A DNA stretch of 64,000 bases from NCBI GenBank assembly GCA_963696295.1, contig CAVOJR010000001.1:1152001-1216000 (forward strand), given 5' to 3'. The notes under the pieces were generated by a model, which saw only the letters and a program-made list of their open reading frames with translations, was not told the origin of the DNA and ran no database searches. This DNA comes from an uncultured Chlamydiae bacterium. Lineage in GTDB: Bacteria; Chlamydiota; Chlamydiia; Chlamydiales; JAJFMB01. Below are positions 42,293 to 46,796 of this stretch, piece after piece. Position numbers and translations under genes: made by a program. How positions within the stretch are numbered: position 1 is the stretch's first letter; each line of letters begins with the position of its first letter.

Positions 42293-43776
42293 TAAAAGTG
42301 GTCACCCCCAAAGAAATGGCCTCGTGCGAAGCGAGGGCCTATGCCGACAACTTTTCGGAAGAGGCCTTTATGGAGCAGGCGGGCAGGGGCATTGCCATTT
42401 GCGTCCAGGAATTCATCCAAAAATGCGCCCTCGAGAAAAGGGTCACCCTCCTTTGCGGAAAAGGGAACAATTCCGGCGACGCGTATGTGGCCGGCAGATA
42501 CCTCCTGCAGCAGAATTACCAGGTCTTTGCCCTCCAAGTCACTCCCATTGAAAAAAGCAGCCCTCTTTGCCAAAAAAACCACGCGCGCTTTTTAGAGTCC
42601 AAAGGGCAAATGACAACTAGCTTGCAGGGTCTTCTCCTCGACGGGCTATTCGGCACCGGCTTTCACGGCGCGCTGGAAGAACCGTTTGCCTCCCTGGTTA
42701 TCCGGGCGAATCAATCCCAATTGCCCCTCATCGCGATCGACATTCCCTCCGGTCTGAACGGGGAAACGGGCGAGGCGGCCGGGCCGGCCATCCAAGCGCA
42801 TCTGACAATTTACTTAGGCCTCCCCAAAACCGGCTTTTTTTTAAACGACGGCTGGAACCATGTCGGCGAGCTGCAAGGCGTGGATTTCGGATTAGAACCC
42901 GCCTACATCGATCAAGCCAAGGCGCCCTTTCTTTTAATCACCGGCTGCCTTCTGCCCCCCGTCAAGCGCAACCGGCACAAATATGAAACCGGCCACGTCG
43001 TCGGCCTGGCGGGCTCTCCCGGCATGCCCGGCGCCGCCCTCCTCGCCTCCTCAGCGGCCCTAAAAGGGGGAGCCGGCATTCTGCACCTTCTCCATCCCGA
43101 CGGGATGCAGGCCGAGCTCGCAAACAGCCTCTACGAAGTGATCAAGATCCCCTACACCAGCCCTGAGCTCGTAATGGAAAAAATCAACCAGGCCAAAGCC
43201 GCCTTCATCGGACCCGGCCTTGGACGCACGGCTGAAACGCGCGCCCTGTTGAAAACCGTGCTGGCCAACCTGACGGTCCCCTCCGTCATCGACGCCGACG
43301 CGCTGACGCTCATTGCCGAAGATCAACTCCCGTTGCCTCCCCGAGCCATTTTAACCCCGCATCATGGGGAGATGGCCCGCCTGCTCAATCCGGCCCACCC
43401 GCAAAAAAACCCCTTAAACGCCGATCTGCTCAACCGCTGCCAGGCCTATGCAAAAGAAAAACGGATCACCCTCGTTCTCAAAGGGGGGCCCACGTTTATT
43501 TTCCATCCTGAAAAACCCGCACTCGTCAACCCCACCGGCTGCCCCGGCATGGCCAAGGCCGGCAGCGGCGACGTGCTCACGGGCCTGATCGCCGCGCTCC
43601 TCGCTCAAGGCGCTGACCCATACGAAGCTGCCGCCACAGGGGTGTATCTGCACGGTTTAGCCGGCGAGGACGCCGAGAGGGAGAAGACGGCCTATGGCAT
43701 GATCGCCTCCGACATCATCGCCCATTTCCCCGCGGCTTTCTATGCCGTTCTGGCGAGTGTAAAAGGCTTAGATTAG
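42289..43776 (+). CDS. nnr: bifunctional NAD(P)H-hydrate epimerase/dehydratase (YjeF)
   Basis: MEQAG, GKGNNSGD, DIPSG, GPGLG, IDADAL, LTPHHGEM, AGSGDVLTG. Confidence 0.93.
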   Translation: MIKVVTPKEMASCEARAYADNFSEEAFMEQAGRGIAICVQEFIQKCALEKRVTLLCGKGNNSGDAYVAGRYLLQQNYQVFALQVTPIEKSSPLCQKNHARFLESKGQMTTSLQGLLLDGLFGTGFHGALEEPFASLVIRANQSQLPLIAIDIPSGLNGETGEAAGPAIQAHLTIYLGLPKTGFFLNDGWNHVGELQGVDFGLEPAYIDQAKAPFLLITGCLLPPVKRNRHKYETGHVVGLAGSPGMPGAALLASSAALKGGAGILHLLHPDGMQAELANSLYEVIKIPYTSPELVMEKINQAKAAFIGPGLGRTAETRALLKTVLANLTVPSVIDADALTLIAEDQLPLPPRAILTPHHGEMARLLNPAHPQKNPLNADLLNRCQAYAKEKRITLVLKGGPTFIFHPEKPALVNPTGCPGMAKAGSGDVLTGLIAALLAQGADPYEAAATGVYLHGLAGEDAEREKTAYGMIASDIIAHFPAAFYAVLASVKGLD

Positions 43777-44987
43777 GAGCGGGCCGCCATAGTTCCTGAT
43801 TCAATGGAGCAGACTTTCTTCAACGCTTGATCCAAATCGTCAATAATATCTTCCCTCTTTTCAATCCCAATAGATAATCGGATCAAATCTTCTGGAGAGT
43901 TATCCATCTGTGAGGCTTTTTTATGCTCATGATCTACCATAGAATGAGACATGGATTGGGCATGCTCAATACAACTATGAATCCCCCCTAAACTCACAAA
44001 AAGACCTATTAACCTGGTGTTTTCAATCAATTGTATCGCTGAAGATTTTGACCCTTTTAAAGCGAACGAAATCACTCCTCCCCCATTTTTTAATAGCTGA
44101 TTCGCAAGGGAATACTGAGGATAGGATTTTAAAAGAGGATATCGGACAAACTGCACTTTGGGATGGGATTCAAGATATTCAGCAACAGATAAAGCTGAGG
44201 CGTTTTGTTGCTGCAATCTCAAGTGCAACGTTTTTAGCCCTTGGGAAATCAGCCAAGAGGCGTGAGGATCCATACAAGCTCCATAGAGCGCTTGTGTATG
44301 CCAAATCTTCTCAGCAGTTGCTTCATCACATAAAACCGCTCCTCCAAAAGAAGAAAAGTGTCCGCTGATATATTTCGTAAGGCTGTGAATTGTGATATCA
44401 ATAAAATCCGGGGAATGTATCTCAAGATTGCCAGGAGGGGTAAAAGTGGCATCGCAAATTGTCGTCGCATGGATAGATTTTGAAATTTCTTTGATTTTTC
44501 CAAGATCGGCAAGCACAAGATCAGGATTGCTGAGGGTCTCGAAATAGATGAATTTTCCCTTTTGCGCAGGTGGATGATCCATTAGAGCATCCGCATCAAG
44601 AATGTCAAAGAAGATCACATTAACTCCAAACCTGGGCAGCTCTTCGACAATAAATTTCAAGGTATCCCCATATAGGCGGTTCGAGGCAAAAAGCGTATCC
44701 CCTGATTTTAGCAGAGAGATAAGCGTTGTTGTAATAGCAGACATTCCTGAAGGAAAAATAAGAGATTTTTCATAGCCGCAAATCGCCAAAAGTTGCTGTT
44801 CCAAAAAGCTCACCGTTGGATTACCCCAACGTGTGTAGTAGGCAGAGGGATGCACAGCTTTCTCACAACGAATCGCCTCGGTATAAGAGGGCATTTGAAA
44901 AAGGCTTGTCTGATAAATAGGCTGACACAGCGGCTCATTTTCCGCGCCGATATTAGGGGTCTTTAGCATTCGAGAAAAGCTATCCAT
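43773..44987 (-). CDS. PLP-dependent Cys/Met metabolism (trans-sulfuration fold) enzyme
   Basis: PIYQTS, YTRWGNPT, SGMSAI, ETLSNP, HSLTKYISGH (PLP Lys), VSLGG, IRLSIGIE; GGAGG RBS. Confidence 0.9.
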   Translation of the reverse strand: MDSFSRMLKTPNIGAENEPLCQPIYQTSLFQMPSYTEAIRCEKAVHPSAYYTRWGNPTVSFLEQQLLAICGYEKSLIFPSGMSAITTTLISLLKSGDTLFASNRLYGDTLKFIVEELPRFGVNVIFFDILDADALMDHPPAQKGKFIYFETLSNPDLVLADLGKIKEISKSIHATTICDATFTPPGNLEIHSPDFIDITIHSLTKYISGHFSSFGGAVLCDEATAEKIWHTQALYGACMDPHASWLISQGLKTLHLRLQQQNASALSVAEYLESHPKVQFVRYPLLKSYPQYSLANQLLKNGGGVISFALKGSKSSAIQLIENTRLIGLFVSLGGIHSCIEHAQSMSHSMVDHEHKKASQMDNSPEDLIRLSIGIEKREDIIDDLDQALKKVCSIESGTMAARS

Positions 44988-45997: not shown

Positions 45998-46796
45998 GAT
46001 AACGATTTGTTAATTCTATAAATTTCTCTCGAACTTGCACAGGCAAACTATCCACTATATTATAATAGTTTTCCCATCGCTGATCCAATTCGCCTTGTAG
46101 ACGCTGTTGACCTTCCATCCCATAAAACCTGACAAACATGCGATAAATATTGAAATCATCGCTTGCGATATCTTTCTCATAACATCTCACATCATCTTCA
46201 ATGTCCCGAATTACTTCGATGACTTGAATAGCTTCCCATTCTCTTTCCCCTAAAGATATCCCTTTAATATTTTGAAAAATATGATGTATCATCATCACAT
46301 CGCTCGCACGCAATTCAATGGCCTTTGAGAGCTTTTCGGGTGTGATGGCGTTTCCATACATGAGATCATTTTCAAGAATCCAATATTCTGTTAAATGATT
46401 CGCTTCCACTTCAACTGGAAAAGAGTATAAGCGAATCTCCTTAAGCAGTTCCATCAGATTTTCTTTTTGGACAATCCAAGGTTGAACCCCTTCATATGAA
46501 GCAAGATCTTTTTGTCCTTGTTCAATTTCGGCATCTGCTTGATAAACAAGAGCCTGAGTAAAAAGAACTATCGGATAAACATCTTTCTGAAATTCCAGCG
46601 CGGTAAATTCATATAGAGGGGCTACATAATGAAACAGAAACGACAAAAATTTCATACTATGCTTCACAGTCCCATATGACAATAGGGGCTGTTCTGTGAT
46701 GGAGAGGTGCTGTTGCGAAAAGCTTGTAGAAGTACAAAACAATGCAGCAGTCAAAGTTGAACATACAATACGCTTAAAAGAAATGCAGTAAACCAT
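45945..46796 (-). CDS. hypothetical protein, possible class I isoprenoid-synthase fold
   Basis: ATG 46796 with GGAG RBS; signal-like N-terminus; acidic motifs YQADAEIE and DIEDDVRCYEKDIASDDFN. Confidence 0.55.
   Translation of the reverse strand: MVYCISFKRIVCSTLTAALFCTSTSFSQQHLSITEQPLLSYGTVKHSMKFLSFLFHYVAPLYEFTALEFQKDVYPIVLFTQALVYQADAEIEQGQKDLASYEGVQPWIVQKENLMELLKEIRLYSFPVEVEANHLTEYWILENDLMYGNAITPEKLSKAIELRASDVMMIHHIFQNIKGISLGEREWEAIQVIEVIRDIEDDVRCYEKDIASDDFNIYRMFVRFYGMEGQQRLQGELDQRWENYYNIVDSLPVQVREKFIELTNRYHEQRPRVTVPPAKIEIF

Follow-up and report, generated by a model that had tools for sequence, protein, structure and literature searches.

The described systems closest to the locus treated here concern cyclic and prenylated arginines. 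Teixobactin contains L-allo-enduracididine, Txo1 being AJF34463 and Txo2 having two thioesterase (TE) domains (available part of PMC8244413); as far as the accessible text of a 2016 review goes, MppPQR is the only route listed, and arginine in place of allo-enduracididine lowers teixobactin activity about tenfold (PMC5238550). Our literature searches turned up no account of allo-enduracididine-making enzymes. In guanitoxin biosynthesis the desaturase-family arginine gamma-hydroxylase GntB is followed by GntC, a class I pyridoxal phosphate (PLP) enzyme that takes 4-hydroxyarginine to enduracididine. For guanidine prenylation, excerpts of PMC12371840 report a DxxxE motif in Aer3 and prenylation of arginine by AgdS and AgdT. 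Cystathionine gamma-synthase, in the portion of 10.1101/2023.03.21.533663 at hand, combines gamma-elimination with addition via a vinylglycine ketimine. Here we describe a mobile three-gene cassette that may bring such reactions together, in a 64,000-nucleotide stretch of an uncultured Chlamydiae bacterium (contig CAVOJR010000001.1, positions 1,152,001 to 1,216,000), hereafter the window; its source genome, G000, is 97% complete.

Three tightly packed minus-strand open reading frames lie between nnr and the GT2-wzt-wzm operon in this 64-kb window, encoding a protein of no named family (OrfA), a GntB-type desaturase and a PLP enzyme of the Cys/Met-metabolism fold. The reading we tentatively favour, while granting it somewhat less than an even chance as a whole, has three predicted reactions: the membrane diiron enzyme would hydroxylate L-arginine at C4 to 4-hydroxyarginine; the PLP enzyme, of cystathionine-synthase fold, would eliminate the C4 hydroxyl, with the guanidine attacking C4 to give (allo-)enduracididine; and OrfA would transfer a dimethylallyl or geranyl unit, with a guanidine nitrogen as the likeliest acceptor. 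The product would be a free, non-ribosomal arginine derivative. Judged by sequence comparison, arginine hydroxylation by the desaturase is probable; hydroxylation plus ring closure comes close to being a balanced proposition but leans towards doubt, and the entire route, N-prenylation by OrfA included, is doubtful.

The desaturase (PF00487) scores 400.4 bits on NF041365, the model for the arginine gamma-hydroxylase GntB (cut-off 380), as against 28 bits for DesA and 49 bits for CrtR; the earlier note's placing of it in an amino-acid-acting group thus holds, and an ordinary acyl-lipid desaturase was rejected. Its histidine boxes (HEAAH80, HVGAHH117, HNENYHLTHH264) and hydrophobic segments are present. 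Identity is 49% to GntB of S. torques-reginae, 47% to two Eleftheria terrae proteins (AJF34466 and that of P9846, locus L097) and 36-37% to RtxC-like proteins of Robbsia and Sinorhizobium, whose rtx labels were assigned from gene order (L098, L100) in strains we take to be rhizobitoxine producers. A quick tree of 86 rows, with fragments below 280 aa omitted and no lipid desaturase among the rows, places it in a 20-row clade (SH-aLRT, the approximate likelihood-ratio test, 99) that includes AJF34466, the P9846 protein and those of loci L023 and L024; a 24-row rebuild recovers this clade with a value of 94 for the nine rows kept. The clade is separate from the GntB clade, from EamA-linked clades and from RtxC.

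The comparison with RtxC bears on the direction taken in the earlier note, an oxyvinylglycine (rhizobitoxine-like) pathway, in which the PLP enzyme would carry out gamma-substitution on an O-acyl-homoserine and the desaturase would add the enol-ether double bond. The fold of the PLP enzyme permits gamma-substitution, RtxC-like proteins belong to the same wider desaturase family, and a grouping with RtxC survives approximately unbiased (AU) tests (p 0.07 and 0.15). Against this, 17 alignment columns are conserved in the window's desaturase clade and GntB but differ in RtxC, with two columns the opposite way (two RtxC rows). With RtxA-like proteins the PLP enzyme shares 27-29% identity; it does not have the insertion found in them and belongs to a different clade. 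MetA, MetX and RtxD were not found in the genome, and a serinol aminotransferase was met there only as a 96-aa partial match. This route now appears very improbable.

For none of the 25 listed NCBIfam models (45 in total) does the PLP enzyme (PF01053) attain the threshold score. It keeps K205, Y51, R53, Y106, D179 and R370, and has Asp108 in the cysteine column of methionine gamma-lyase (MGL) and Val331 in the glutamate column of cystathionine gamma-lyase and gamma-synthase (CGL/CGS); the catalytic or substrate roles of these positions (the MGL cysteine after the stacking tyrosine, the ESL glutamate) are our assumption. Identification as MGL was rejected on 285 bits against a cut-off of 550 and on Asp108 in place of cysteine, and as CGL/CGS, MetC or BesB on the model cut-offs, Val331 and a separate position in the tree. 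Identities are 37-38% to MGL, 31-32% to MetB and the genome's own cystathionine lyase, 25.5% to MetC and 25% (partial match) to a protein picked by its context in L105, presumably BesB. In a 15-row tree the enzyme forms a clade with its counterparts in L011, L021, L023, L024 and L097 (support 100/100, identity 49-71%). D108 and E341 are specific to this clade, Glu341 being present throughout it, and two such acidic residues would suit a guanidinium group. Elsewhere in G000 (C1:3234079-3236302; L002, L004), an incomplete second copy of the C-terminal 110 residues of the housekeeping cystathionine lyase comes after the lyase itself.

The PLP clade is present in all six desaturase-clade loci with downstream sequence (the window, L011, L021, L023, L024 and L097), always clustered with the clade desaturase and in five of the six directly behind it, the place that GntC occupies in guanitoxin locus L033. 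Among 75 metagenome desaturase loci, 16 have a class I PLP gene and 5 a Cys/Met PLP gene; none has both, many of the contigs being short. Because of these patterns the PLP enzyme appears to stand in for GntC, of which it would be a convergent replacement. Another locus (L034) joins a desaturase to a sister PLP enzyme, EamA and argininosuccinate synthase (ArgG). The commonest context, in 22 of the 75 loci and also on Bacillaceae plasmids, is a two-gene unit of a GntB-like enzyme with an EamA/DMT transporter (L025, L099, plasmid hits H2-H4), which would export hydroxyarginine or a similar analogue. A more distant desaturase has its own recurrent cluster (L062, L065, L066, L068, L072, L074), with proline-dehydrogenase-like, threonine-aldolase-like, ATP-grasp and major facilitator superfamily (MFS) proteins and a class V aminotransferase.

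Could the PLP enzyme instead be a housekeeping trans-sulfuration enzyme, or a self-resistance copy of one, as the earlier note had offered as its alternative? The full PLP machinery of the family is retained, but the failure against the family models and the low identity to MetC speak otherwise, and the genome has its own cystathionine lyase (32% identity). Among 400 chlamydial genomes two gave a clade member (G000 and G158, both times beside the desaturase); the 391 Pseudomonadota genomes scored gave none. Because of the low MetC identity, and because the clade travels with the desaturase, even into non-ribosomal peptide synthetase (NRPS) clusters, the idea is barely credible.

One possibility of more weight, although still unlikely, is that the PLP enzyme is a lyase acting on hydroxyarginine, by gamma-elimination with deamination or by release of guanidine, so that together with OrfA it would yield no ring but either a galegine-like free prenylguanidine or a keto acid. 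Its nearest named families, MGL foremost, are lyases; 4-hydroxyarginine is also the substrate that Fgm3 cleaves, and the breakdown of canavanine runs via the same ketimine, so far as the available excerpts of these accounts extend. In genome G327 an OrfA relative occurs with a RaSEA-like radical S-adenosylmethionine (SAM) enzyme (207.8 bits, cut-off 212), of a family that we take to cut the C-N bond next to an amidine, and protein P0192 fuses the two. On the other side, the enzyme lacks the MGL cysteine, and the same PLP clade is met in NRPS clusters, whose expected building block is the amino acid left whole.

These NRPS clusters also bear on the favoured reading, ring closure to (allo-)enduracididine. 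Among 72,556 plasmids, the best matches of both desaturase and PLP enzyme lie in the same NRPS cluster of E. terrae P9846, in which two NRPS modules carry the code DAEDIAAMI, with acidic residues at 239/278; we take this code to be of arginine type, and the numbering is likewise assumed. The cluster lies on a large plasmid (L097/L101/L102; NZ_CP106952.1, about 666-756 kb) and also has an Asp/Asn beta-hydroxylase. Loci L023 and L024 run in the order NRPS with tandem TE, MFS transporter, desaturase, PLP enzyme, and their desaturases are 66-68% identical to AJF34466.1 (P0031). This order fits the three-accession offset from Txo1; AJF34466 likely belongs to the teixobactin cluster, and the desaturase-PLP pair would be a candidate for supplying allo-enduracididine to NRPS clusters of teixobactin type. 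In G000 itself, a 5,202-aa NRPS with LysE and a gene resembling phosphopantetheinyl transferases upstream (C1:28.7-44.3 kb; L111, L112) yielded four adenylation-domain motifs, none arginine-like; because it shows no arginine-type module, the cassette product is read as a free metabolite.

The cassette is a mobile unit, rare and patchy in chlamydiae. In G792, of the same family, nnr abuts GT2-wzt-wzm directly, an empty site; in G206, also of this family, about 4.5 kb of other DNA occupies it. A single 16,488-bp contig of run X6 matches positions 43772-46706 at about 91% (268 letters differ) and resumes at 46753-46814 after a brief substituted segment (46707-46752); beyond both cassette ends it is dissimilar to the window. 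The three genes recur in the same order in another chlamydial family (L011, from G158), with identities of 55%, 67% and 70%, and fragments of a close relative of that locus hold orfA-desaturase (L022) and desaturase-PLP (L021); the co-occurrence that the earlier note looked for is thus found. Among the 400 chlamydial genomes scored, the GntB model matches three (G000, G158 and, distantly, G361) and OrfA three (G000, G158 and G327).

The L011 cassette is flanked by an amino-acid permease and a mitochondrial-carrier gene (PF00153), a family unusual in bacteria that adjoins GntB-like clusters in several chlamydial loci (L011 10225-11022; L021 2420-3217; L016 4176-5024 and 7858-8649); a search of G000 with the L011 query found none. 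Locus L016 (G361:C41, 4176-10684) is a different cluster, with a distant GntB-like desaturase (210 bits), two carriers, LysE, a B3/4 tRNA-editing domain protein, a class I PLP enzyme and an ornithine cyclodeaminase-like gene, which suggests a toxic amino-acid analogue with self-protection by editing.

The model of OrfA is an all-helical bundle of class I terpene-synthase fold, and the protein has two acidic motifs of the metal-binding kind. Its best fold matches are terpene cyclases, and the second-motif region gives a weak profile match to the diterpene synthase Sat1646 (E 0.015). The earlier note had called it Asp-rich and overlooked the fold: overall, Asp is 4.6% and Glu 9.9% of residues, with only the two motifs locally acidic. 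These read DxxxE instead of DDxxD and D/E-x3-D-x3-Y-x2-D, and a canonical class I terpene cyclase (DDxxD plus NSE/DTE) was rejected for this protein. Its family comprises about 300 representatives without a Pfam or NCBIfam model; because relatives are fused to Pyr4-type membrane terpene cyclases (P0193, P0195, P0317, P0325, P0337, P0340, P0346), transfer rather than cyclisation is suggested. Other members are joined to a radical SAM domain (P0192) or sit between lipocalin and methyltransferase domains (P0166). OrfA is put forward as a putative guanidine prenyltransferase like Aer3 and AgdS, the likeness being drawn from motif and fold.

The OrfA relative of G327 lies close to the sole IDI match in its genome and to an enzyme resembling GntC (300 bits, cut-off 415); the whole locus (L020, G327:C41, 8713-13981), which also has the RaSEA-like enzyme and an amino-acid permease and lacks a desaturase, is a second candidate prenyl-amino-acid cluster. 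In G000 a type 1 IDI adjoins a squalene-synthase-like gene (C1:959568-961093; L114).

It may also be that the pair makes (allo-)enduracididine and OrfA acts separately, as an exported terpene synthase, a diphosphatase or a host-directed prenyltransferase using host prenyl diphosphates. The prominence of terpene cyclases among the fold matches would suit this, as would the signal-peptide-like N-terminus of OrfA, with a similar stretch, ending ASHA, in its relative P0002, and 68-residue Arg/Ser-rich, acid-poor extensions in P0003 and P0004; the pLDDT is below 50 over OrfA residues 1-31, and conservation with the X6 contig continues to 46814. Each is also found apart from the other, OrfA in G327 and the desaturase-PLP pair in NRPS loci. 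Set against these are the DxxxE that stands in for the canonical DDxxD and the conservation of gene order and overlap across two chlamydial families (55-70% identity), the three genes moving as one unit. On balance, a separate OrfA is quite unlikely.

Several findings weigh against the favoured three-step route. The window's desaturase clade is not sister to GntB in the tree, and AU tests reject neither a GntB grouping (p 0.28) nor the RtxC one. Clade relatives fall below the GntB cut-off (L011 372.5, AJF34466 375.6, L023 362.9, L097 348 bits), and RtxC-like proteins reach 312-322 bits on the same model; with close relatives at 348-376 bits, the cut-off alone cannot fix the substrate. The place of AJF34466 in the teixobactin cluster has accession proximity as its basis, and the NRPS-linked pairs lack OrfA within the loci examined. 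OrfA has no conserved DDD, the window's protein showing only EDD201-202 and SDD213-214. Its export-like N-terminus is awkward because it would need cytosolic prenyl diphosphate, and because the desaturase and PLP enzyme that would supply its acceptor both face the cytoplasm. G327 gave no GntB match and no VioC match (no control responded in the VioC search), so the arginine link of its OrfA relative is incomplete, and the window's cassette contains no exporter. A more far-reaching reading runs as follows: the pair would be teixobactin's missing allo-enduracididine route; environmental chlamydiae would have acquired it from NRPS clusters and combined it with OrfA, acting as an exported guanidine prenyltransferase; and host prenyl diphosphate would serve to complete a prenylated cyclic guanidine beyond the bacterial cytoplasm. 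We hold this to be rather unlikely.

Table 1. Coordinates of the cassette, its parts and its flanks in the window
Feature	Position	Strand	Basis
Mobile three-gene cassette, limits	43772..46814	-	Extent of X6 contig match; empty site in G792
OrfA, putative prenyltransferase, class I terpene-synthase fold, no Pfam/NCBIfam family	45945..46796	-	283 aa from ATG
GntB-type membrane diiron desaturase-family enzyme, predicted arginine gamma-hydroxylase	44996..45997	-	333 aa; NF041365
Cys/Met-metabolism-fold PLP enzyme, desaturase-linked clade, predicted gamma-hydroxyarginine cyclodehydratase	43773..44987	-	404 aa; PF01053
Ribosome-binding site AGGAGG, overlaps desaturase stop, coupling to PLP gene	44992..44997	-	Sequence
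OrfA first acidic motif, D88-x-x-x-E92	46521..46535	-	D in 58/64, E in 62/64 family rows
OrfA second acidic motif, E194...D198...D202...Y206...D209...N216 (NSE/DTE position)	46143..46217	-	D202 55/64, D209 63/64, N216 63/64
OrfA signal-peptide-like N-terminus (basic, hydrophobic, small-residue end)	46713..46796	-	Read by eye with hydropathy
Flank nnr (YjeF/NAD(P)HX repair), host gene outside pathway	42223..43776	+	PF03853 + PF01256; gpsA-nnr synteny in relatives
Flank GT2 (family 2 glycosyltransferase) of wzm-wzt-GT2 operon, host gene	46892..47809	-	PF00535; adjoins nnr in G792

The three genes are real, co-directional and AT-rich, as first described. OrfA and the desaturase overlap by 53 nt, an 8-nt gap separates the desaturase from the PLP gene, whose ATG is preceded by AGGAGG, and the PLP-gene and nnr stops overlap at 43773-43776 on opposite strands; an alternative TTG start for OrfA at 46877 would give 310 aa. 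Cassette GC is 39.1% against a genome median of 47.4%, with 2.7% of 3-kb genome windows equally low or lower, and GC at third codon positions is 0.32-0.40 in the cassette genes against 0.62-0.71 in six flanking genes. Elsewhere in the window, between wzm and rfbA, are tandem AT-rich paralogues (50154-50702 and 50910-51446, minus strand; 30-33% GC) with a lipoprotein-like N-terminus ending GC, the first without a Pfam family.

A small-molecule pathway, as the earlier note had proposed, is likely. If the favoured reading is true, cyclic arginines would be reached by yet another independent route, the trans-sulfuration fold would be credited with a new reaction, host-dependent bacteria of this phylum would be shown to carry a mobile cassette for a small molecule, and the pair would offer a concrete, testable two-enzyme candidate for the allo-enduracididine of teixobactin. 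The OrfA family, otherwise unannotated, gains a predicted terpene-synthase fold.

Among the closest known systems is guanitoxin: as there, a desaturase matching the GntB model is followed directly by a PLP enzyme, and the same two reactions are predicted. The differences are a PLP partner of Cys/Met rather than class I fold, a separate desaturase clade, the absence of gntD-G and the added terpene-synthase-fold gene. A guanitoxin cluster proper was rejected, since class I GntC and gntD-G are missing from the cassette and the genome's matches are scattered at 31-36%; GntF and GntG found no match in the genome, and GntD only a 300-bit one (cut-off 345), a GntD/VioC-like iron/2-oxoglutarate-dependent hydroxylase with an EamA transporter gene after it, at a distant site (C1:671982-673800; L110). 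With the teixobactin cluster of E. terrae and L023, L024 and L097 the cassette shares the desaturase clade, and with the last three the PLP clade, but it has no NRPS. Rhizobitoxine RtxA/RtxC likewise sets a desaturase-family enzyme beside one of trans-sulfuration fold, in clades separate from those here, and with a serinol aminotransferase, MetA and RtxD that this locus lacks. The guanidine N-prenyltransferases Aer3, AgdS and AgdT would resemble OrfA in size (that of a hypothetical protein), terpene-synthase-like fold, DxxxE and arginine-type context; OrfA shows no conserved DDD and has an export-like N-terminus, and no Rieske AerC or NRPS is nearby. The terpene-cyclase-fold N-prenyltransferases DabA/KabA and FlvF are about 8-13% identical to OrfA and ranked no higher than true cyclases. 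The MppPQR and VioC/VioD routes share the predicted product class, cyclic arginines, but use unrelated enzymes. Taken with these systems, we infer that the cassette is a so far uncharacterised variant of known cyclic-arginine and guanidine-prenylation chemistry.

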